Below are positions 31,444-44,419 of a DNA stretch of 64,000 bases, in pieces. A program made the translations under genes and the position numbers. Every line of letters starts with the position of its first letter. Positions within the stretch are counted from its first letter, which is position 1. The notes beneath the pieces were generated by a model that was not told the DNA's origin, did no database searches, and worked only from the letters and a program-made list of their open reading frames with translations. This stretch comes from an uncultured Candidatus Rokubacteria bacterium. Lineage in GTDB: Bacteria > Methylomirabilota > Methylomirabilia > Rokubacteriales > DASRDR01. Location of the stretch: NCBI GenBank assembly GCA_963805625.1, contig CAWDVE010000010.1, positions 1,280,001 through 1,344,000 on the forward strand, given 5' to 3'.

Positions 31444-31751
31444 CGGCTTCTGGATCACGGCCACCCGGGGAACCGGCAGAGCACCGCGGGGACGTGGCTG
31501 CGGACCCTGTGTGGATTATGGGCAGCGGGGTCTGCTTCTTCGAGCGGAAGACCACTGGGCCAACGCCCGTCGTAGCCGTCGCCTGGCGAGGCGACTCTCG
31601 GAGACGCCAGAGGGATGCTGCGTCCGCCGATCAGGCCTGCCCCTTGCACATAGAACGTTGTCGCCCCGGAGCTGCCGAAGGGGAAGCGCGACACGCCGAC
31701 CTCGTGGCTGGCGGGCTCACGCGAGTGCGGTGCTACAATTTTCGTATTGGC

Positions 31752-32528
31752 ATGTATTCCTCGCGCACGGTCGAGACCCTGGCGGCTCGGCTCGAGGCAG
31801 CCCCGGTCCTCGTCCTGCTGCTCGACTACGACGGTACGCTGGTCCCGTTCGCGCCGACGCCGGATCTCGCCGAGCCCGACGACGAACTGATCGGCCTGCT
31901 CGGCAGCCTTGCCGCCCGGCCGGACACCGAGATCCACATCGTGAGCGGACGGCCCCGCGAGACGCTCGAGCGATGGCTCGGCGCCCTCCCGATCGGCCTT
32001 CACGCCGAGCACGGCTTCTTGTCCCGCCCTCCGGGCGCCACCGAGTGGGTGAGCGGGATGATTCCGCCCCAGGACTGGCGCCCGGCCGTGCTCGCCCTCA
32101 TGCGAGCGTTCGCGGCACGAACACCGGGGGCTCTTGTCGAGGAGAAGAGTACCGGACTCGCATGGCACTACCGCCTGGCGGACCCGGCGATCGGCCCGAG
32201 CCGGGCGCATGCCCTGACGCTCGAGCTGTCGATTCTCCTTGGCCGCCTGCCCGCCGAGATCCTGCCCGGGTCGAAGGTCATCGAGGTGGTGGCCCGAGGC
32301 GTCCACAAGGGCCGCCTCGTCCCCTCCGTCGTGGCCCGTGCCCCTGCGGGCGCGCTGGTCGTGGCCATCGGGGACGATCGCACCGACGAGGATCTGTTCG
32401 CGGCGCTGCCCCCGAGCGCGCTCGCGGTCCACGTCGGGCCTGAACCGACGACGGCCTCCATCCGTCTCGGCGGTGTCCGGGACGTCCGCGCCCTCCTCCG
32501 CACGGTCGTGGAAGCCCGGCCCAGCTAA
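31752..32528 (+). CDS. otsB: Trehalose-6-phosphate phosphatase
   Basis: LDYDGTL, SGR, AEHG, WHYR, KVIEV, HKG, GDDRTDED. TGCTACAAT extended -10 at 31731-31739. Confidence 0.88.
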   Translation: MYSSRTVETLAARLEAAPVLVLLLDYDGTLVPFAPTPDLAEPDDELIGLLGSLAARPDTEIHIVSGRPRETLERWLGALPIGLHAEHGFLSRPPGATEWVSGMIPPQDWRPAVLALMRAFAARTPGALVEEKSTGLAWHYRLADPAIGPSRAHALTLELSILLGRLPAEILPGSKVIEVVARGVHKGRLVPSVVARAPAGALVVAIGDDRTDEDLFAALPPSALAVHVGPEPTTASIRLGGVRDVRALLRTVVEARPS

Positions 32529-32614: not shown

Positions 32615-34606
32615 ATGGCATATCGGTCGCCGCGCGGCGACGTCCGCAGCGTCTGGATCGGTGACGTCCGGCCCGAGCTGGATGGCGGGCGATTTCCCGT
32701 CAAGCGCGAGGTCGGCGACACGTTCGAGGTGACCGCGGACATCCTGCAGGAGGGCCACAGTGGCCTGGCCGCCGTGCTCCGCTACCGGACCGTGAAGGAC
32801 ACGGCGTGGCACGAGGCGCGCATGGAGCCCCTCGGAAACGACCGCTGGGCCGGCCGGTTCCTTCTGGAGGAGAACACGCGGTACGTCTACACGCTCGAGG
32901 CGTGGCCGGACGCCTACCGGACCTGGGCCGATGACCTCCGGAAGCGCCTGGGGGCCGGCATGGACGTCTCGAGCGAGCTCCTCGAAGGCGCGGCCCTCCT
33001 GCGGGGCGCCCTCGCGCGCGTCGTGGGAGCCGACCGCCGGCGGCTGGAGGCGCGTCTCGGCGACTTCGAGGCGACGAGCGACACCGACCGCCGGGCGCGA
33101 CTCCTCCTCAACGAGGAGGTCACCGAGGTCCTCGACATCTATCCGGATCGAGCCGCGGCGACGCGGTATGACCGGGAGCTCGAGGTGGTCGTGGACCGCC
33201 CTCTGGCCCGGTTCGCCGCATGGTACGAGTTGTTCCCGCGATCCCAGGGCCGGGTACCGGGCCGACCCGGCACGCTCCGCGACTGCATCGAGCGGCTGCC
33301 GGAGATCGCGGACATGGGCTTCGACGTGGTCTACCTGCCGCCGATCCATCCGATCGGGCGGAGCTTCCGGAAGGGACGAAACAACGCGCTCGAGGCGGGC
33401 CCCGACGACCCGGGCTCCCCGTGGGCCATCGGCAACGAGCACGGGGGGCACAAGGCGATCGATCCCACCCTGGGGACGCTGGCAGACTTCCGAGCGTTCC
33501 TTCGAGCCGCCCGAGACCACGGGCTCGAGATCGCGCTGGACTACGCGCTCCAGTGCTCGCCGGACCATCCCTGGGTGACCGAGCACCCCGAGTGGTTTCA
33601 CCATCGGCCGGACGGGACGATCAAGTACGCCGAGAACCCGCCGAAGAAGTACCAGGACATCTACCCCTTGAACTTCTTCGGCCGGGAGCGCGAGGCGCTC
33701 TGGGAGGAGGCGAAGGGCATCCTCCTCTTCTGGATCGAGCAGGGGGTGCGGATCTTCCGCGTGGACAATCCCCACACAAAGCCGATCGCGCTATGGTCCT
33801 GGCTGATCGCGGAGATCCAGGCCGTCCACCCTGACGTGATCTTCCTCGCCGAGGCCTTCACGCGCCCGCGGGTCGTGCAGAGTCTCGCGAAGGTCGGCTT
33901 CACCCAGTCCTACACGTACTTCACGTGGCGGAACTTCAAACAGGATCTGATCGACTACCTCACCGAGCTGACGCGCGGAGAGATGGCGGAATACTTCCGG
34001 GGAAACTTCTTCGCGAACACGCCGGACATCCTTCCCCCCATCCTGCAGCAGGGCGGGCCGCCGGCCTTCCGGATGCGCCTCGCGCTCGCGGCGACCCTCT
34101 CCTCGCTCTACGGGATCTACAGCGGCTACGAGCTCTGCGAGAACGCCGCCATCCCCGGCACCGAGGAGTACCTCGATTCCGAGAAGTACGAGATCCGGGT
34201 CCGGGACTGGAACGCGCCAGGGAACATCCGCGCGTACGTCGCGCGGCTCAACCGGATCCGCCGGGAGAACCGGGCACTCCACGAGTACCGGAACCTCGTT
34301 TTCTACGAGAGCGACGACGAGCACGTCCTCTGCTACGGGAAGCGCAGCGCGGACGGGACTAACGCAGTCCTCGTGGCGGTGAACCTCGACCCGTTCGCGC
34401 CGCACGAAGCGGGGGTGCGCGTGCCCCTCGAGACCCTGGGGATCGCGGCGGACGAGCCCTTTCAGGCCCACGAGATGCTCTCGGACGAGCGGCACCTCTG
34501 GAGGGGGCCGACGCAGCACGTCCGCCTCGACCCCATGATGGAGCCCGCGGCGATCCTCCGCCTCGAGCGCTTCGGACAGCGTGCCTACGGGACGCCGTGC
34601 TACTGA
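32615..34606 (+). CDS. glgE: Alpha-1,4-glucan:maltose-1-phosphate maltosyltransferase
   Basis: WYELFPRS, YLPPIHPIG, RKGRNN, YAENPPKKYQDIYP, FRVDNPHTKP, SEKYE. Confidence 0.95.
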   Translation: MAYRSPRGDVRSVWIGDVRPELDGGRFPVKREVGDTFEVTADILQEGHSGLAAVLRYRTVKDTAWHEARMEPLGNDRWAGRFLLEENTRYVYTLEAWPDAYRTWADDLRKRLGAGMDVSSELLEGAALLRGALARVVGADRRRLEARLGDFEATSDTDRRARLLLNEEVTEVLDIYPDRAAATRYDRELEVVVDRPLARFAAWYELFPRSQGRVPGRPGTLRDCIERLPEIADMGFDVVYLPPIHPIGRSFRKGRNNALEAGPDDPGSPWAIGNEHGGHKAIDPTLGTLADFRAFLRAARDHGLEIALDYALQCSPDHPWVTEHPEWFHHRPDGTIKYAENPPKKYQDIYPLNFFGREREALWEEAKGILLFWIEQGVRIFRVDNPHTKPIALWSWLIAEIQAVHPDVIFLAEAFTRPRVVQSLAKVGFTQSYTYFTWRNFKQDLIDYLTELTRGEMAEYFRGNFFANTPDILPPILQQGGPPAFRMRLALAATLSSLYGIYSGYELCENAAIPGTEEYLDSEKYEIRVRDWNAPGNIRAYVARLNRIRRENRALHEYRNLVFYESDDEHVLCYGKRSADGTNAVLVAVNLDPFAPHEAGVRVPLETLGIAADEPFQAHEMLSDERHLWRGPTQHVRLDPMMEPAAILRLERFGQRAYGTPCY

Positions 34607-34663: not shown

Positions 34664-36334
<1,671 letters not shown>

Positions 36335-36404
36335 GCGCGACCGAAACCCCTCCGCCGCAGGCCGAGGACCGCTCATCCGATGGGAGAGTGGCGGGAGGAT
36401 CCGC

Positions 36405-37631
36405 GTGAAGGTCCTCCTGCTCACCCGTGAGTATCCGCCCGATGTCTACGGGGGCGCCGGCGTGCACGTCGAGCACCTCGCCCGGGAGCTGGCAAGACTT
36501 GCGGCCGTCGAGGTGCGAACCTTCGGCCGCCAGCACGTCGAGGCCGGGAGCCTCGTGGTGCAGGGCCACGGGGCGGCGGCGGAGACGATCGACCCTCCCG
36601 AGGGCGCGTACTCGTTCGCGCCGGTCATCCGGGCCCTCCGCGTCTGCCTCAGTCTCGGTGTCCGGCCGACGGACGCCGACGTCGTCCACTCCCACACCTG
36701 GTACGCCGCGTTCGGCGGTCTCCTGGCCCGGCTCATCCACGGCATCCCGCTGGTCGTAACCGCTCACTCGATCGAGCCGCTCCGCCCGTGGAAGCGCGAG
36801 CAGCTCGGCCGGGGTGCCGACGTCTCGGCGTGGGCCGAGCGCGCCGCCCTCGAGGCCGCGGACGCGGTCATCGCCGTCTCGACGGAGATGCGACGGGACC
36901 TTCTCCGCCACTACACGATCGCACCCGAGCGGGTACACGTCATCCCGAACGGAGTCGACACCGATACCTACCGCCCGGCGCCCGGCCGGGCGCGCATCGA
37001 GCGGTTCGGGATCGACCCGACCCGCCCCTACGTTCTCTTCGTGGGACGGATCTCCCGGCAGAAGGGTCTCTTCCACCTGATCCAGGCCATCCCCGACCTC
37101 AGCCCCGGGGTCCAGGTCGTTCTGTGCGCCGGGGCACCCGATACGCCCGAAATTGCGCGAGAGGTCGAGGCCGCCGTGGCGCGAGTCCAGGCGCAACGGT
37201 CGGGGGTCGTGTGGATCCCCGAAATGGTCGACCGGGCCACGGCCGTGGAGCTTTACTCGCACGCGGCCGTCTTCTGCTGCCCGTCGGTGTACGAGCCGTT
37301 CGGCCTGATCAACCTCGAGGCGATGGCCTGCGAGATCGCGGTGGTCGCGACCACGGTCGGCGGCATTCCGGAGGTCGTGGTCGACGGAGAGACCGGCTGC
37401 CTCATCCCCGTCGATCTGGTCGACCACGACGGCGTCGTCGAGCCGCGGGATCCCGAGAGCTTCGCGTGGAACCTGGCGCAGGCCCTCAACGCTCTCCTCG
37501 CGGATCCCGCGCTGCGCCGGACCATGGGGGTCAAGGGACGCCAGCGGGCCGAGGCATTCTTCAGCTGGGCGGCCGTGGCCCGCCGCACGCTTGCGCTCTA
37601 CCGGACTCTCGTGGAGGCGCATGAGCGCTAG
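36405..37631 (+). CDS. glgA: GT4 glycosyltransferase, actinobacterial-type GlgA/GlgM (maltose-1-phosphate synthase-like)
   Basis: TREYPPDVYGGAGVHVE, HSHTWY, EPLRPWKREQLG, GRISRQKG, YEPFGLINLEAMAC. Confidence 0.88.
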   Translation: MKVLLLTREYPPDVYGGAGVHVEHLARELARLAAVEVRTFGRQHVEAGSLVVQGHGAAAETIDPPEGAYSFAPVIRALRVCLSLGVRPTDADVVHSHTWYAAFGGLLARLIHGIPLVVTAHSIEPLRPWKREQLGRGADVSAWAERAALEAADAVIAVSTEMRRDLLRHYTIAPERVHVIPNGVDTDTYRPAPGRARIERFGIDPTRPYVLFVGRISRQKGLFHLIQAIPDLSPGVQVVLCAGAPDTPEIAREVEAAVARVQAQRSGVVWIPEMVDRATAVELYSHAAVFCCPSVYEPFGLINLEAMACEIAVVATTVGGIPEVVVDGETGCLIPVDLVDHDGVVEPRDPESFAWNLAQALNALLADPALRRTMGVKGRQRAEAFFSWAAVARRTLALYRTLVEAHER

Positions 37632-39861
37632 GCGCCGGGCCGAAGGCGCCCCGGCTCCGGCCCGGAATCCCGAGCCGCCGCCCCCCCCGGCGCTCACGGC
37701 CCGCGCGGGCGCCGCGCTGGGTGAGACCCTGGGCGGCCGACGATGGTTCGGCAGCAAGAACCGGGATGTGTCCGAAGTCGTCCCGGTGGACCACGCGGCA
37801 GTGCCGGGAACGGCCGGGCTTCTCGCCCTGTTCGACGTGGTCTTCGCTGATCAGGGGCGGGAGCGCTATTGCATTCCCGTCGCGCCACCGAGCATCGACC
37901 AGGAGCCGTTCGTCGACGCGATGGCCGAGCCGGCATTCTGCATGGCCTTGCTGGAGGCGATCCGGAATGGCGCGACGCTCGCGGGCGCGCGCGGCGCGTT
38001 CCGGTGCGTGGCGACGGCCGTGCTGGCCGAGATCCTGCCGGCGGCGCCGCACGAGGCGCGTCCGATCGGGAGCGAGCAGAGCAACACGTCGGTCGTCTAC
38101 GACCGCCGGGCGATCCTGAAGCTCTTCCGGCGGCTCGAAGCCGGACCGAGCCCCGAGCTCGAGCTCACGGACTTCCTCACGCGAGAGGCGACGTTTCCCG
38201 GTGCCCCCCGGCTCGCCGGCGCGGTCACCTACCAGGCCGACGGCGAGGACCCGGTCACGCTGGCCGTGCTGCACGAGTTCGTTCCGAACCAGGGCGACGC
38301 CTGGACGGCCACCCTCGAGCGGCTCGCCGAGTACTACGCGGCCGCGATCGAGGGACGCGGGGAGGAGTCGCCGGACCCCGTCTTCGCCCGTGCCCTGGCA
38401 GCGGCGGACGCGCACGAGGCCGCGCGACTCGGCACGCTCACCGGTCGCCTGCACCGGGCGCTGGCCGCGGCCCCGCCCAGCCACCCCCTGGCGCCCGAGC
38501 CGATCACGACGGGAGACGTGGCCGTCTGGGGGAAAGCGATGCTGGCGCAGCTCAGCCGCGCCGGCGAGGCGCTCGCCGCCGGGCTCCCGGACCTCCCGCC
38601 GGCGCTCCGCGAGAGCGCGGAGCGCGTCGTCGCTGACATCGCCCGTCTAGGCGACGAGCTTCGCGCACAGGACGCCCTCGCGGCCGGAGGTGTCGTGAAG
38701 GTCCGTGTCCACGGCGACTACCACCTCGGGCAGCTCCTGCGAACGGCCGACGGCTTCACCATCCTGGACTTCGAGGGCGAGCCGGCGCGAACCCTGGCAG
38801 AGCGTCGCGCCAAGCAGTGCGTCCTGAAGGACGTGGCCGGGATGCTCCGCTCGTTCGCGTACGCGGCGCAGATCGCCTTCGCTCGCCGCCTGGAGGCAAA
38901 CCCCCACGACGCCAGGCTAGCCGAGCGTCTCAGACCCTGGGCGGAGACGTGGGAGGACGGAGTGCGCACGGCCTTCCTGAACGCGTACCTCGGCGAGGTC
39001 ACGCGGCCCGGCGAGCCGCCGCTGGTACCGATCGAGCGGGAGCGCTTCGACCGGGCTCTGCGCGCCTACGAGCTCGACAAGGCGCTCTACGAGCTCGGCT
39101 ACGAGCTCGCCAACCGGCCGACGTGGGTCTCGGTTCCCCTCGTCGCCCTCGAGCGCGCGATCGCCAGGCTTCCCGGCCCGGCCGCGGGCCAGCTTCGCGT
39201 GGGCGAGGGCCCGTTCGCCTTCATGGCCTGCATGGAGTTAAGGGAGTTCACCGGCCTGCGGGCCGAGAACGAGCGGCAGCTGGCCCAGCTCCTCGACGAG
39301 GTCCCGCTCGACTCGATCTACTACCACACGCACGGCTTCTTGCTGCGCCATCGGCTCGTGACCGGTCTCTATCCCAACGACTTCGCGACGTGGGTAGACG
39401 TTCAGGTGCGGGATCGTGTCCTGGGGGAACGTCTGGCGATGGTCGACCCGGCCGACTTCACCACCCTCCAGGCCTTGCGGGAGGAGCTCGTGTCGGTGGT
39501 GGACGAGCACCTCCGCCGCATCGGCATCGTGCCCCAGGTCATGTCCGGGGAGCCCTTCGACTTCATCCAGTCACGGATCGTCGAGATCCCGACCGGGATC
39601 GAGGTGCGAACGCTCCAGGAGCTCCGGGACGTCCTGCTCGAGGTCGACCAGAGCGCGCTCTACTTCCACCTCGTCGAGACCCGGCTCCGGCTCGGCCGGG
39701 GGCGGAACGACTTCGCGGCATGGCTGGAGCGGGGCCTCGGGCTGCCCGAGCTGGCCGCCCGGGTCCAGGGGGTCAACCCGTACGCCGCCAGCCTCGAGCA
39801 GGCCCGGACCCGTCTCATCGCGCTCCTCGACGAGGCACTCTCCACGGGTGTGGGCCGATGA
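37621..39861 (+). CDS. mak: Maltokinase (Mak/Pep2) fused to a C-terminal DUF5752 (OrfY-like) domain
   Basis: EQSNTS, LKLFRR, HGDYHLGQ, DFEGEP, DVAGMLRSF, then duplicated SIYYH..NDFATW / SALYFH..NDFAAW repeats. Confidence 0.8.
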   Translation: MSARRRAEGAPAPARNPEPPPPPALTARAGAALGETLGGRRWFGSKNRDVSEVVPVDHAAVPGTAGLLALFDVVFADQGRERYCIPVAPPSIDQEPFVDAMAEPAFCMALLEAIRNGATLAGARGAFRCVATAVLAEILPAAPHEARPIGSEQSNTSVVYDRRAILKLFRRLEAGPSPELELTDFLTREATFPGAPRLAGAVTYQADGEDPVTLAVLHEFVPNQGDAWTATLERLAEYYAAAIEGRGEESPDPVFARALAAADAHEAARLGTLTGRLHRALAAAPPSHPLAPEPITTGDVAVWGKAMLAQLSRAGEALAAGLPDLPPALRESAERVVADIARLGDELRAQDALAAGGVVKVRVHGDYHLGQLLRTADGFTILDFEGEPARTLAERRAKQCVLKDVAGMLRSFAYAAQIAFARRLEANPHDARLAERLRPWAETWEDGVRTAFLNAYLGEVTRPGEPPLVPIERERFDRALRAYELDKALYELGYELANRPTWVSVPLVALERAIARLPGPAAGQLRVGEGPFAFMACMELREFTGLRAENERQLAQLLDEVPLDSIYYHTHGFLLRHRLVTGLYPNDFATWVDVQVRDRVLGERLAMVDPADFTTLQALREELVSVVDEHLRRIGIVPQVMSGEPFDFIQSRIVEIPTGIEVRTLQELRDVLLEVDQSALYFHLVETRLRLGRGRNDFAAWLERGLGLPELAARVQGVNPYAASLEQARTRLIALLDEALSTGVGR

Positions 39862-39897
39862 ACCCTCACAAGAGCTCCGCATGACGGGTCGGCACGC

Positions 39898-41100
39898 ATG
39901 AGCGGCCCGCGCCTGGAGGAGTACCGGGCCGTCGCGCCGCGGGGCGCGATCGAGCTCCTGCTGAAGCTCGCCGAGCGGCTGCAGGGCCGGCGCTTCGTCC
40001 ACGTCAACGCAAGCCGTTACGGCAGCGGGTCTTCGGAGATCCTAGCGCGGCTCGTGCCGTTGCTCCAGGATCTCGGCGTCGACGCCACTTGGGAGGTCAT
40101 CGTCGGGGATCCGGCGTTCTACGCGGCGACCCACGCGCTCGAGACGGCGCTCAGCGGCCAGCCGGCCGTCATCACCGAGGCCATGCTCGTCTCCTACGTC
40201 GAGGCCGCTGCGACCAACGCCGCGACGCTCCGGCTCGAGTCCGACCTCCTCATGGTCCACGACCTCCCGGCCTTGCCGCTCGTCCGCCACCGCCCCGAGC
40301 GGGGCCGCTGGGTCTGGCGCTGCTACGCCGACCTCTCCCGCGCGTGGCGACGCGCGTGGCACCTCGTGCGCCGCGACCTCGAGCGATACGACACCGTGGT
40401 GTACTCCATGCCGAAGTTCGCCCAGCGCGTCCGGGTCCCGATGCTCGTCGTTCATCCGTCGATCGATCCGCTCGGCGAGAAGAACCGGGAGCTCGGGCGA
40501 AGCGAGGTACGCGAAGTCCTGGACCGGTACAACATCGCCCGGGACAAGCCGCTCTTGCTCCAGGTCGCCGCCTATTCCCGCGCGACCGAGCCCACAAGGG
40601 CGTTGACCGCCTTCCGCCTCGCGCGAAAGTACGTGCCCTGCCGGCTCGTACTGGCCGGGTGGGGCGCGACGGACAACCCCGAGGGCAGTGCCGTCCTGGC
40701 CGAGCTGCGCGAGGCCGCCGGCACGGATCCGGACGTCCACGTGCTCGTGATGCCGCCCGACGCCGCCCGGGAGCTCAATGCGCTCCAGCGAGCCGCGACG
40801 GTGGTTCTCCACCTGCCACAGCGGGAGGGCTTCGGCCTGGCGGTAGCCGAGGCGATGTGGAAGGGCAAGCCGGTCGTCGGCAGCGCCGCGGGCGGGATCC
40901 CGGCCCAGGTCCTTTCGGAGGTGACGGGCTACACCGTGGGCTCCGTCGAGGGGGCGGCGTTCCGGATCCGGCAGCTACTGCAGAGCCCCGACCTCACCGC
41001 ACGCTTGGGTGGCGCCGCGCGGGAGTACGTCCGGCGGAACTTCCTGCTCCCGCGTCACCTCGGCGACTACCTCGCCCTCCTCGCCCAGATGACCGCGTAG
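39898..41100 (+). CDS. TreT-like GT4 glycosyltransferase with degenerate active-site motifs
   Basis: HVN..GSGSSEIL, WVWRC, PSIDPL..KNREL, NALQRAA, EGFGL..AEAMWKGKPV. Confidence 0.75.
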   Translation: MSGPRLEEYRAVAPRGAIELLLKLAERLQGRRFVHVNASRYGSGSSEILARLVPLLQDLGVDATWEVIVGDPAFYAATHALETALSGQPAVITEAMLVSYVEAAATNAATLRLESDLLMVHDLPALPLVRHRPERGRWVWRCYADLSRAWRRAWHLVRRDLERYDTVVYSMPKFAQRVRVPMLVVHPSIDPLGEKNRELGRSEVREVLDRYNIARDKPLLLQVAAYSRATEPTRALTAFRLARKYVPCRLVLAGWGATDNPEGSAVLAELREAAGTDPDVHVLVMPPDAARELNALQRAATVVLHLPQREGFGLAVAEAMWKGKPVVGSAAGGIPAQVLSEVTGYTVGSVEGAAFRIRQLLQSPDLTARLGGAAREYVRRNFLLPRHLGDYLALLAQMTA

Positions 41101-41115
41101 CGGGACGGAGCAAGC

Positions 41116-42360
41116 GTGGCGGACGGGCTCATCCTCGAGACCGCGCTCCCGCCGGACGGCACTGCGGCGGTGGAGGCGCTGGGACCCGTGGAGGCACTGG
41201 TCGCCGTCACGGCGCTGAACCAGGCCCGGACCGCCCCATCCGTCGTTACCGCGGTCGCCGCCGGGCTGGCCCGCGGCTTCGCCGGGCGGAAGACGGCGGT
41301 CCTCTTCGTCGACGGCGGGTCGCAGGACGGTACCCTCGATGCGGTCAATCAGCAGGCGTCGGCTGATGCGACGGTCCCGGTCGCGAGCGCCCGTGTCTCC
41401 GGACGCCCGGGACGCGGCCGCGCCGTGCTGGCCGCGCTGGCGGCAGCCCGGCACGTCGGCGCCCGCGCGGCAGGCATCGTGGACGCCGGCCTCGCCAGCA
41501 TCACCGCCGAGTCGGTCGAGCTTCTGCTCGGCCCCGCGCTCAACGGGGATGCCGACTACGTCTCGCCTTCCTACACCCGCGCGCTCACCGAGGGCACGCT
41601 CACGACGAACCTTCTCGCGCCCCTGGTCCGATCGCTCTACGGCAAGCGTCTCCAGGAGGTGCTCGGGGGGTGCGCCGCCGTGTCGTCGGCCATCCTCGAT
41701 GCCTTGCCCCCGGCGGAGGAGTGGGCCGACGAGCCGACGGGCCAAGGAGCGGAGATGCGGGTCCTCGGCCAGGCACTGGCGGGCGACCACGCGCTCGTCG
41801 AGGTCCATCTGGGCCGGAAAGAGGTCAATCCCGGCGCCGCCCCGGCCGATCTCGCCCACACCCTGGTGGACGCCGTCGGGCCGCTGTTCCGGCTGATGGA
41901 GCGCCACGCCGCCGGGTGGCAGGACGTCCGAGGGAGCGTGCCAGTCCCTCGGCGAGGCCCAGCCGACCCCGGCCCCAGGGCGGCGGGCGACGTCCGGCCA
42001 GATCGGATGGTCGGGGCCTTCCACCTCGGCCTGAAGGATCTCCTTCCGCTCTGGGAGCAGGCCGTGACGGAGGAGACGCTCGGCCAGCTCTACCCGCTCG
42101 GGCTCCTCGGGCCCGACGACTTCCGCTTCCCGCCGTCCCTGTGGGCTCGCGTGATCGCCGACTTCGCCGTGGCCCACCACGAGCGGCGGCTTCCACGGGA
42201 CCACCTCCTGCGGGCGCTGACGCCGCTCTATCTCGGGCGAGTCGCCGCGTTCGTTCTCGAAACCCAGGCCGCATCCTCGCCGGGAGCCACCGATGCCCTC
42301 GAGCGGGTGTGTCTGGCCTTCGAGGCCGAGAAGCCCACGCTCTCGGCTCGATGGAGGTAG
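41116..42360 (+). CDS. GT2 glucosylglycerate/mannosylglycerate synthase-like protein with degenerate motifs
   Basis: DGGSQDGT, PLVRSLYG, LWARVI.DF, PLYLGRVAAF, FEAEKP.L..RW. The DxD motif reads DAG. Confidence 0.7.
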   Translation: MADGLILETALPPDGTAAVEALGPVEALVAVTALNQARTAPSVVTAVAAGLARGFAGRKTAVLFVDGGSQDGTLDAVNQQASADATVPVASARVSGRPGRGRAVLAALAAARHVGARAAGIVDAGLASITAESVELLLGPALNGDADYVSPSYTRALTEGTLTTNLLAPLVRSLYGKRLQEVLGGCAAVSSAILDALPPAEEWADEPTGQGAEMRVLGQALAGDHALVEVHLGRKEVNPGAAPADLAHTLVDAVGPLFRLMERHAAGWQDVRGSVPVPRRGPADPGPRAAGDVRPDRMVGAFHLGLKDLLPLWEQAVTEETLGQLYPLGLLGPDDFRFPPSLWARVIADFAVAHHERRLPRDHLLRALTPLYLGRVAAFVLETQAASSPGATDALERVCLAFEAEKPTLSARWR

Positions 42361-42362
42361 TG

Positions 42363-43067
42363 ATGCAGCAGCAATGGAGCGACATCGTTCTCGACGCGAT
42401 CAGGGACGTGGGGCATCGGATCCTGTTCGTGACGCCCCGACTCTTAGCCGCGCTCACGCTGATACTGCTCGGCTGGATCGTCGCAGCCCTGGTCCGCCGC
42501 GTCACGATCCGGGTCCTGGCTGCCGCGGACCTCGACGTGCGATGCGCCCGATGGGGACTGACTGGGGTCCTCAGCCGTGGCGGTCACCGTCCGTCGCCGA
42601 CCGAGCTCCTCGGCCGTCTCGTGTACTGGGCCATCTTCCTCGTGGGGCTGCTGATGGCCGTCGAGGCGCTGGAGATGCCGGGGACGCGGGGCGCGGTGGG
42701 CGCGGTGCTCGCGTTCCTGCCGCACGTCATCGTCGCGGTGCTCGTCGTCGTCGGGGGGTGGATGCTCGCCCAGTTCCTGGCCCAAGCCGTGTTGATCGCC
42801 GCGGTCAACGCTCAGGTGGCGGGGGCCTCCCTGCTGGCGACGGCGGTTCGCTGGCTCGTCCTCACCGTCGCCGCCGCCGTCGCCCTGACCGAGCTCGGCG
42901 TCGCACGCGAGATGGTCCTGCTCGTCTTCGGAATCGCGTTCGGCGGGGCAGTGCTCGCCCTGTCGCTGGCCTTCGGCCTCGGAGCGCGAGAGCTGGCGCG
43001 CCAGGCCCTCGAGAGCTACCTCGCCCGGGTGCGCCAGGACCGCGGCGAGCCCGTCTCGCACGTCTGA
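42363..43067 (+). CDS. MscS-associated TM-helix repeat membrane protein (CmpX-like)
   Basis: Two repeats (PRLLAAL.LILLGWIVA / LPHVIVAVLVVVGGWMLA) and a ALSLAFGLG tail. Confidence 0.7.
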   Translation: MQQQWSDIVLDAIRDVGHRILFVTPRLLAALTLILLGWIVAALVRRVTIRVLAAADLDVRCARWGLTGVLSRGGHRPSPTELLGRLVYWAIFLVGLLMAVEALEMPGTRGAVGAVLAFLPHVIVAVLVVVGGWMLAQFLAQAVLIAAVNAQVAGASLLATAVRWLVLTVAAAVALTELGVAREMVLLVFGIAFGGAVLALSLAFGLGARELARQALESYLARVRQDRGEPVSHV

Positions 43068-43081
43068 CGGCAGGAGGCCCC

Positions 43082-44419
43082 ATGGCCGGGATGATCGACA
43101 GCGCGTTCTTCGGGGATCTCTACTCGACCGCCGAGATGCGGGAGGTATGGAGCGACCGCGCGATGATCCAGCGCTGGCTCGACGTCGAGTCCGCGCTCGC
43201 TCGCGCCGAGGCTCGCCTGGGGATCGTCCCCGCCGCGGCGGCCGACGAGATCACCCGGAAGGCCCGTGTCGAGCAGCTCGACTTCGGGGAGATGAAACGG
43301 GAGCTCGAGGAGGCCCGCCATCCGATCATGCCCTTGATCCGCTGCCTCGCGCGCGCCTGCGAGCCGGAGGCGGCCGAATTCATCCACTGGGGCGCGACCA
43401 CCCAGGACATCCTCGACACGGGGCTCATCCTCCAGCTCCGATCGAGTCACGCCATCGTGCTGCGCGACCTCGGCGAGGTTCGCCGCCTGCTCGCGGCCCT
43501 GGCGCGCCGCCACCGGGACACCGTCCAAGCGGGCCGGACCCACGGGCAGCAGGCGCTGCCGATCACCTTCGGCTACAAGCTCGCCGTGTGGGTCGCGGAG
43601 ATCGACCGGCACCTCGAGCGGCTCGCCCAACTCGCGCCCCGGGTCTTCCGGGGTCAGCTCGCGGGTGCCGTGGGGACCCTCGCGTCGATCGGCGAGAAGG
43701 GCCTCGAGCTCCAGGCGCTCTTCTGCGCGGATCTTGGCCTGGCCGTCCCGGAGATCGCCTGGCACACCGCCCGGGACGGCGTGGCGGAGGCCGTCTGCGC
43801 CTACGCGCTCGTGAGTGGCACCCTTGCCAAGATCGCGAACGAGGTCATCGACCTCCAGAAGACGGAGGTGGCGGAGCTGGAGGAGCCGTTCCACCGGGGC
43901 AAGATCGGGTCCAGCACGATGCCCCACAAGCGCAACCCGTCGGCGTGCGAGCACGTGGTGGCGCTGGGCCGGCTCCTCCACGCCCAGGTCGCGCCCGCCC
44001 TCCAGAGCATGGTCTCGGCAAACGAGCGGGACAAGCGGGCGGGTGTGACCGAGCAGGCGGTTCTGCCCGAGGTCTCGTGTCTCGTCGCCGGGATGCTCCG
44101 CGGGACCCGGGGAATCCTCTCCGGCCTCCACGTGTACCCGGAGCGGATGCAGGAGAACCTCGGACTCCTGGACGGGCTCCTCCTGAGCGAGGCCGTGATG
44201 CTGGCGCTGGCACGGCACATCGGCCGCCAGCGGGCCCACGAGGTCGTCTACGAGCTGAGCATGGATGCCGTCGAGGGGCGGCGGCCCCTCAGGCAACTGC
44301 TCCTCGAGGATCCGCGGGTCAAGCCCTACCTCGGCCCGGCCGAGCTCGACAGCCTGCTCGACCCGGCCCGCTACACGGGGCTCGCCGCCCGCTTCGTCGA
44401 TCGCGTGGCTTCCCCGTAG
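43082..44419 (+). CDS. Adenylosuccinate lyase / 3-carboxymuconate cycloisomerase family lyase
   Basis: HWGATTQDILDT, GRTHGQQA, GSSTMPHKRNP signature. Confidence 0.85.
   Translation: MAGMIDSAFFGDLYSTAEMREVWSDRAMIQRWLDVESALARAEARLGIVPAAAADEITRKARVEQLDFGEMKRELEEARHPIMPLIRCLARACEPEAAEFIHWGATTQDILDTGLILQLRSSHAIVLRDLGEVRRLLAALARRHRDTVQAGRTHGQQALPITFGYKLAVWVAEIDRHLERLAQLAPRVFRGQLAGAVGTLASIGEKGLELQALFCADLGLAVPEIAWHTARDGVAEAVCAYALVSGTLAKIANEVIDLQKTEVAELEEPFHRGKIGSSTMPHKRNPSACEHVVALGRLLHAQVAPALQSMVSANERDKRAGVTEQAVLPEVSCLVAGMLRGTRGILSGLHVYPERMQENLGLLDGLLLSEAVMLALARHIGRQRAHEVVYELSMDAVEGRRPLRQLLLEDPRVKPYLGPAELDSLLDPARYTGLAARFVDRVASP

Follow-up and report, generated by a model that had tools for sequence, protein, structure and literature searches.

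Degenerate glycosyltransferase genes in a trehalose operon

The window analyzed here is a stretch of 64,000 nucleotides (nt) from the genome of an uncultured Candidatus Rokubacteria bacterium (assembly GCA_963805625.1, contig CAWDVE010000010.1, positions 1,280,001 to 1,344,000), in which otsB, glgE, treS, a GlgA/GlgM-type GT4 gene, a maltokinase gene fused to a DUF5752 domain (mak-DUF5752), treT*, gt2* and msc form one same-strand run (Table 1). This study concerns the last three genes: treT* encodes a member of the TreT glycosyltransferase family, gt2* a protein with the fold of the Ggs, GpgS and MgS glycosyltransferases, and msc a hydrophobic protein. Both treT* and gt2* encode folded, selectively conserved and probably non-catalytic proteins, and are not genes in decay. 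As a first-pass annotation of the sequence had described them, the open reading frames (ORFs) are uninterrupted, of normal codon usage and tightly spaced: GC content at third codon positions is 0.92 in treT*, 0.88 in gt2* and 0.89 in msc, against 0.90-0.92 in glgE, treS and mak, and the gaps are 15 nt between treT* and gt2* and 2 nt between gt2* and msc. The host genome is 99.9% complete and holds a single TreT gene and a single gene of the gt2* GT-A family, and no intact backup copy of either family was found in it.

TreT* matches PF21269 (TreT_GT1) with 122 bits (cut-off 27), is 36-39% identical to TreT, and its structure model (predicted local distance difference test, pLDDT, 93.6) superimposes on solved TreT structures with TM-scores of 0.89-0.95. 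What is known of GT-B enzymes in general agrees with a role of the Ser-Arg-x4-Lys and GGGVAE residues in nucleotide contact. In an alignment with P. horikoshii TreT, S238, R239 and K244 are replaced by A224, A225 and T230, H92 by E82 and H155 by Y143, GGGVAE reads GSGSSE, and E326 is retained as E310. His92 of TreT is described as lining the acceptor pocket (PMC4490520), and a predicted ADP complex places the Ser-Arg-x4-Lys and GGGVAE residues at the nucleotide (PMC13166879). The donor motif EGFG...E is present in the window copy (E310, G311, F312, G313 and E318) and partly gone in other lineages of the cassette, as we call loci with the degenerate treT-gt2 pair. Of the acceptor-pocket residues, H82 is found in 4 and N83 in 2 of 60 cassette TreTs, and the residues often kept are D145 (60/60), H143 (54/60), E318 (53/60) and E310 (42/60). 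The WRCYAD variant that the first-pass annotation counted among the losses is present in the window but is mostly a strain-level change, His being the common residue at site 143. The lost columns are those of the active site, and no ligand pocket is kept in every lineage; one lineage (L120, L121, L124, L125, L127, L128 and L150) keeps only 2-6 of 16 scored sites and has also lost the donor-side EGFG motif, yet retains the cassette. Judged by these residues, TreT* probably lacks catalysis.

The structure model of GT2* (pLDDT 91.8) comprises a GT-A domain and a helical C-terminal domain; the best full-length structural match is MgS (TM-score 0.62-0.69), and GpgS matches the catalytic domain. In a profile alignment with mycobacterial GpgS, K114 corresponds to R100, D136 to G125 and H258 to V237, while D134 is retained as D123; K114 is reported as an ion-pair residue and D136 and H258 as metal-site residues (PMC2581804). 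The second Asp of the DxD motif and the distal metal-binding His are therefore both gone, as are the RHKYDG and QPIGGD motifs of Ggs, GpgS and MgS. The nucleoside-pocket motif is retained, and in the ion-pair network D123 is present, R100 takes the place of Lys, and E213 is assigned by motif likeness only. Among 60 cassette GT2s, K100 is replaced by Arg in 51 and the metal-binding His is retained in one. Relaxation affects the catalytic domain, and residues 301-380 and 401-414 remain conserved. GT2*, too, is probably non-catalytic. All the motif variants first read from the two proteins were found in their places, and the comparison with solved TreT and GpgS bears out the active-site losses.

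In the wider GT2 family (P0245-P0393), 94 of 130 full-length representatives at 50% identity keep fewer than 12 of 13 scored sites, in a search whose profile was built from degenerate members. Many of these low-scoring representatives are only 33-45% identical to anything sampled, and one cluster has an Acidobacteriaceae member, so degenerate GT2s may be far more widespread than our sample. The family also includes fusions (P0267, P0266, P0268, P0338 and P0277), among them a 1179-amino-acid (aa) protein with three tandem copies, fusions to GpgS-like domains (one with Usp) and one TrkA_N fusion. Among the long GT2 matches no fusion to TreT or TreS was found, the partners being GpgS-like, Usp or TrkA domains.

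Selection on the degenerate proteins

The same kind of residue loss was found in the 120 best homologues of TreT* and the 120 of GT2*. Recurrence among relatives, which had been proposed as a check on the first-pass annotation, holds for the sites of loss but not for the replacing residues, which differ by lineage (R225 to P, A or S; K230 to T, Q or A in TreT*) and so look like relaxation, not like a new active site. The median ratio of nonsynonymous to synonymous substitution rates (dN/dS), computed for every pair among the window and up to 11 relatives (9-12 sequences), is 0.106 for treT*, 0.248 for gt2* and 0.170 for msc, similar to the neighbouring treS (0.101), glgE (0.139), glgA (0.204) and mak (0.242). 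For ten loci of the NC10 type the values are 0.18 for treT* and 0.40 for gt2*, compared to 0.14 for treS and 0.35 for mak.

The claim of selected and probably non-catalytic proteins is upheld. Simple decay, or neutral hitch-hiking within the operon, could draw on the faster evolution of gt2* than of treS and on frameshifts in gt2* in some assemblies, but it is ruled out as simple decay and extremely improbable in either form given dN/dS values far below 1 that match those of neighbouring enzymes, the full length of the genes throughout an order and in two additional phyla, and loss concentrated on active-site columns.

Coupled loss and descent from an active operon

The intact groups served to choose 16 TreT and 13 GT2 sites, which we scored in 122 TreT and 119 GT2 sequences (a few loci were fetched twice); the scores of those groups are for this reason partly circular. 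All 60 GT2s within 500 nt of treT are degenerate, keeping 2-7 of 13 sites (3 in the window), whereas 56 of the 59 GT2s not behind treT keep all 13; the other three are two duplicates of cassette loci and one GT2 behind mak (L196). The difference greatly exceeds what chance would give. Among the 60 TreTs adjoining a GT2, 56 keep fewer than 12 of 16 sites, three keep 12 and one keeps 15 (59 of 60 counted as altered), while 51 of the 62 TreTs without an adjoining GT2 keep all 16. The remaining 11 comprise seven cassette-type TreTs with the GT2 cut off or frameshifted, three of a deltaproteobacterial group, and L139. In metagenomes, treT lies directly upstream in all 46 loci with enough upstream DNA (of 80) and all scored pairs are degenerate; these loci were found by cassette alignment and are selected by the query, not independent.

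The cassette descends from an active orfY-treT-mpgP-gt2-msc operon, which is found intact in the same phylum (L135). In the GT2 tree (45 of 119 rows), the degenerate GT2s have L135 and L139 as their sister group (support 85). Some loci are intermediate: L110 has a fully intact TreT followed by a degenerate GT2 (7/13 sites), L040 nearly so, and L139 has a part-degenerate TreT, an intact GT2 and treS inserted after orfY. When the cassette TreTs were tested as one clade (46 of 122 rows, active-site columns dropped), this was rejected by the approximately unbiased test (p-AU 0.007; 0.015 with L139), but a clade with the intact L135 and the part-intact L139 added was not (p-AU 0.20). The tree of treS- or mak-linked GT2s needs three changes, two of them forced, although long branches of the Acidobacteriota group may be misplaced. 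One operon origin followed by parallel erosion fits these trees. The loci show stages in the conversion of enzymes to pseudoenzymes, from intact (L135) through part-way (L110, L139, L040 and Nitrospira) to advanced (the window).

Three further arrangements were observed. A deltaproteobacterial TreT group (L072, L075 and L078) keeps 11-12 of 16 sites and has orfY, with no GT2 or treS nearby. In L196 / L214 (G485:C56) a GT2 with 10 of 13 sites is nested among intact enzymes, behind mak and before msc, apparently an independent early stage. In several NC10-type loci (L018, L019, L020, L241, L249, L258, L275 and L276) the degenerate cassette is accompanied by another orfY-treT pair, intact and placed immediately after msc.

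Association with trehalose synthase TreS

For TreT loci flanked on each side by 4 kb or more of sequence, treS is no further than 7 kb away in 49/49 cassettes and in 0/26 loci with intact treT. The other cassette neighbours are orfY (49), mak (42), glgE (35), msc (25) and tps (5). The first-pass annotation had proposed regulation of Mak/GlgE flux; the tie to the TreS/Mak/GlgE route stands, but the constant partner is TreS, not Mak or GlgE. The gene order takes at least three forms, with treS upstream in the group of the window, between orfY and treT in Nitrospira and downstream of gt2* in other Rokubacteriales. The phosphatase gene that goes with active GT2s is gone from the cassette. In 170 genomes of the phylum, 102 of the 108 with a divergent GT2 have the same TreS type, five have this TreS alone and 57 have neither. 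Ten genomes carry a more distant TreS, which in the two checked is fused to Mak, and none of the ten showed a cassette. Of 54 records of cassette TreS, 53 are of a stand-alone protein, and the catalytic motifs are intact in 53 of 53.

Outside the phylum, treS-gt2*-msc occurs in one genome of the Nitrospira phylum and four genomes of the phylum of L081, which from its order we take to be Acidobacteriota. These five GT2s keep 5-9 of 13 sites, and each lacks two of K100, D125 and H237. TreT was not found in the five genomes, and neither TreT_GT1 nor DUF5752 in four of them, with the genome of the window as positive control; GT2* thus does not need TreT*. Among 24 GT2 loci from the phylum of L081, the sole one with fewer than 11 of 13 sites is the sole one adjoining treS. 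TreS-GT2*-Msc looks like the minimal unit.

The fusion of Mak to DUF5752 proved real, and DUF5752 is OrfY: the domain matches OrfY of PDB 4CSO (E 1e-20). For OrfY the ESM Atlas yielded DUF5752 alone. Mak-OrfY fusions are common in this group; among the 237 longer OrfY matches, the 120 listed contain only the Pfam families OrfY and Mak, and the named ones are mostly Mak fusions.

The membrane protein

Msc matches PF05552 in two stretches (38 bits, cut-off 22) and has five main hydrophobic regions. No Pfam match to the MscS beta-domain or cytoplasmic cage was found, and NF033912 scores 75 bits, below its cut-off of 100. The first-pass annotation had coupled the two degenerate proteins to this MscS-type transmembrane (TM) protein. 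The genes are indeed adjacent in the window, and in 10/10 genomes checked msc is present elsewhere when it is not next to the cassette; however, it is adjacent in only 25/49 cassettes, and the pairing is inherited from the operon of active GT2s. In most Nitrospirota and at many other loci msc follows an intact GT2, and the msc-GT2 link is therefore older than the catalytic loss.

Proposed function and alternatives

TreS acts with Mak to draw off trehalose into the maltose-1-phosphate that GlgE uses, and in actinobacteria the two, as unfused proteins, associate in a complex, as reviewed in PMC11046441. Our preferred reading, held with modest confidence, is that TreT* and GT2* are non-catalytic subunits of a complex built on TreS that would gate the flow of trehalose through maltose-1-phosphate and GlgE into glycogen. 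GT2* would be the core adaptor, binding TreS probably by its conserved C-terminal helical domain and staying tied to the Msc TM protein. OrfY-TreT*, docking on GT2*, may be a layer that Methylomirabilota and Nitrospira have added, and in the window the Mak-OrfY fusion would tether maltokinase to TreT*. Such a complex would decide when the osmolyte goes into glycogen. In the most speculative step, Msc might relay an osmotic signal: the cell would hold on to its trehalose during salt or drought stress and turn it into glycogen on relief.

Complex prediction for TreT*-GT2* lends weak support, with a score of 0.45 (runs of 0.45, 0.46 and 0.00) compared with 0.00 for the best of three controls. Contacts agree between runs to at least 91% and the partners have pLDDT of at least 84, with no interface given. 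Of 157 solved pairs 116 attained the mark for a complex, as did 2 of 215 mismatched pairs, but those attaining it with scores of 0.60 or less were only 18 of the 157 solved pairs and both passing mismatches.

Several observations weigh against a TreS-built complex. L110, with its degenerate GT2 behind an intact TreT, has no TreS found in its genome, and in L139 an intact GT2 has treS about 2 kb away. Another nine GT2s, distant paralogues, keep 6-11 of 13 sites and have no treS; K100, D125 and H237 persist in eight of them. The ancestry of the cassettes is largely shared, so the counts are not independent events and overstate independence. The window copies also retain E310 and E318 in TreT* and D123/R100/E213 in GT2*, and residual ligand binding or low activity is possible. 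C-terminal residues of GT2* that seemed gained, as for a new interface, are carried by the nearest intact enzymes too and are thus retained; that candidate was withdrawn.

One alternative is that the two proteins are sensors of ligand or osmolarity, TreT* binding a nucleotide, nucleotide-sugar or trehalose and GT2* reading the state of Msc, with the signal as their main function. The frequent retention of H143, D145, E318 and E310 speaks for it, as does the presence of msc in 10/10 genomes with a non-adjacent copy and at all five treS-gt2*-msc loci; the MSC protein of T. tenax, moreover, disturbed growth of E. coli in an osmolarity-dependent manner (PMC3634074). Yet the acceptor-pocket residues are gone, the lineage with 2-6 sites keeps the cassette, msc also adjoins active GT2s and the TM protein has no match to the MscS cage domain, so that we consider a sensor unlikely. 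Sugar sensing, as the first-pass annotation had it, finds no support, with H82 and N83 nearly absent and one lineage devoid of the donor-side EGFG. The loss pattern favours a putative binding surface over a sensor, because the C-terminal region of GT2* is conserved while its catalytic domain is relaxed, and because no ligand pocket of TreT* survives in all lineages, although the window copies retain E310/E318 and D123/R100/E213.

It is also conceivable, if improbable, that either protein, or both, has stayed an enzyme but altered its chemistry or substrate, or that each of the two (with OrfY) supplies what the other's active site lacks. The genome of the window has no further copies of the two families, selection on TreT* is as strong as on TreS, and E310 and D123/R100/E213 are kept, with Arg for K100 in most cassettes. 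Against this, the cassette group has no new invariant active-site residues, the replacements are heterogeneous, the metal-binding His is nearly always gone and the phosphatase gene has left the cassette.

Activation of the synthase of trehalose-6-phosphate (OtsA/TPS), as by the T. tenax glycosyltransferase, with the link to treS as mere pathway clustering, has a direct precedent (PMC3634074). Two TPS genes lie elsewhere in the host genome, both outside this operon, which otsB heads, and tps is near 5/49 cassettes. It is nevertheless commoner near intact treT loci (12/26), and treS is the constant neighbour, which makes this account quite improbable.

A bolder extension of the TreS-built complex is a widespread and as yet undescribed membrane-tethered switch on the path from trehalose to glycogen, an osmolyte-synthesis operon turned regulator: a glucosylglycerate-type synthase would have become a TreS adaptor on an MscS-like protein (in three phyla), a dead TreT with OrfY would then have linked in maltokinase, and membrane tension would set TreS flux. 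In this full form we hold it to be doubtful.

Comparison with known systems

The first-pass annotation did not recognise the system as described. We found no prior description of this pseudoenzyme-TreS system in listings of the open-access literature, but a published analogue exists in the msc-gt-tpsp complex of T. tenax (PMC3634074). According to that report, a glycosyltransferase without activity of its own in assay activates a fusion of TPS with the phosphatase of trehalose-6-phosphate (TPS-TPP, or TPSP) by binding, and is co-transcribed with msc. Both systems place a non-catalytic glycosyltransferase homologue and an MscS-like protein with TM regions only beside a trehalose enzyme, which in our case is known from gene content and sequence. 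The T. tenax MSC is given as 197 aa long and as resembling only the TM region of MscS (PMC3634074), and by description the Msc of the window is alike. T. tenax has one GT4, closest to PimA, that activates the TPS-TPP fusion, whereas the window has two degenerate proteins, one GT-B and TreT-derived and one GT-A and Ggs/MgS-like, with OrfY and TreS, and its operon has no TPS; binding and activation were shown in T. tenax and are conjectured here. GT2* was ruled out as a homologue of the T. tenax activator, since the latter is reported to be a GT4 (PMC3634074). In yeast, the trehalose synthase complex likewise retains GT-B homologues without catalysis, Tsl1 and Tps3, in a regulatory or structural role, but these are eukaryotic proteins that stem from TPS-TPP and serve the TPS/TPP route (cited in PMC3634074). 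By analogy, the system of the window may work like the T. tenax complex and the inactive yeast subunits without being a member of either, having other glycosyltransferase families, two dead subunits and TreS instead of TPSP.

Among active enzymes, TreT (P. horikoshii 2X6Q, T. uzoniensis 6ZJ4) with OrfY (4CSO) has the same fold as TreT* and the same orfY-treT gene pair, which in T. tenax presumably forms an operon; it differs in that TreT* has lost GGGVAE, His92, HDPQP and Ser-Arg-x4-Lys, and in the fusion of OrfY to maltokinase in the window. GT2* shares its fold with Ggs, GpgS and MgS, and intact relatives sit with a HAD phosphatase gene and msc; it differs in the residues and phosphatase gene lost. 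The mycobacterial TreS-Pep2 (Mak) complex, with the GlgE pathway, resembles the window in having one operon for TreS, Mak and GlgE, in leaving TreS and Mak unfused and in the flux of trehalose towards maltose-1-phosphate, and differs in that no pseudoenzyme or membrane subunit appears in the portion of the account we cite (PMC11046441).

Regulation of the TreS-Mak-GlgE route is described as sparsely studied (PMC11046441). The genes of the window supply candidate protein regulators of this route that are directly testable, and a first testable role for OrfY/DUF5752. Rokubacteriales are common soil bacteria, and treT*/gt2* next to treS are kept in many soil and water bacteria, where they would likely control the drain of trehalose into glycogen. 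In databases these proteins go under the names 'trehalose synthase' and 'glucosylglycerate synthase', and metabolic reconstructions of Rokubacteriales probably credit them with two pathways that may be lacking.

Other features of the locus and host genome

The closest relatives are labelled Rokubacteria or Methylomirabilota.

Table 1 Coordinates of the genes of the trehalose operon within the window
Feature	Position	Strand	Remarks
otsB (trehalose-6-phosphate phosphatase ORF)	31494..32528	+	True start probably near 31.8 kb; heads the operon
glgE (maltosyltransferase)	32615..34606	+	Same operon; not constant across cassettes
treS (stand-alone trehalose synthase)	34664..36334	+	Catalytic motifs intact; constant neighbour, putative target of the module
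GlgA/GlgM-type GT4 ORF	36000..37631	+	True start probably at about 36.4 kb; not a constant cassette neighbour
Maltokinase fused to OrfY (DUF5752)	37591..39861	+	OrfY part 39208-39858; start probably ATG at 37621
treT* (TreT-family GT4, GT-B fold)	39898..41100	+	400 aa; phosphate-binding Arg/Lys and acceptor-pocket residues gone; probable pseudoenzyme
gt2* (Ggs/GpgS/MgS-fold GT-A protein)	41116..42360	+	414 aa; lacks two metal ligands; conserved C-terminal helical domain; probable pseudoenzyme
msc (hydrophobic protein)	42363..43067	+	234 aa; MscS-type TM-helix repeats (PF05552); inherited neighbour of the GT2 family

The start of treT* is in frame with mak-orfY, 36 nt past its TGA and with no further stop between them (39859-39898), and in several relatives the orfY stop and the treT start abut or overlap. 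An adenylosuccinate-lyase-like gene, recognized by eye, lies 3' of msc (43084-44419); the same gene follows in only 6/49 cassettes.

One of the two TPS genes (L220:7574-9511; G000:C10, about 1547.6-1549.5 kb) has an N-terminal hydrophobic segment and, by eye, a HAMP-like stretch ahead of the synthase domain. Its only Pfam match is PF00982, and its 3' end looks frameshifted. A membrane-anchored TPS of this kind would fit osmotic control.

In a single soil RNA run (n = 1; share 0.13; contigs only), parts of all genes are covered at low depth, which is silent on expression level or co-transcription. One contig of this run shares the treS-orfY junction of L011:7648-10001, a cassette without mak, glgA and glgE in which treS is immediately followed by a free orfY.

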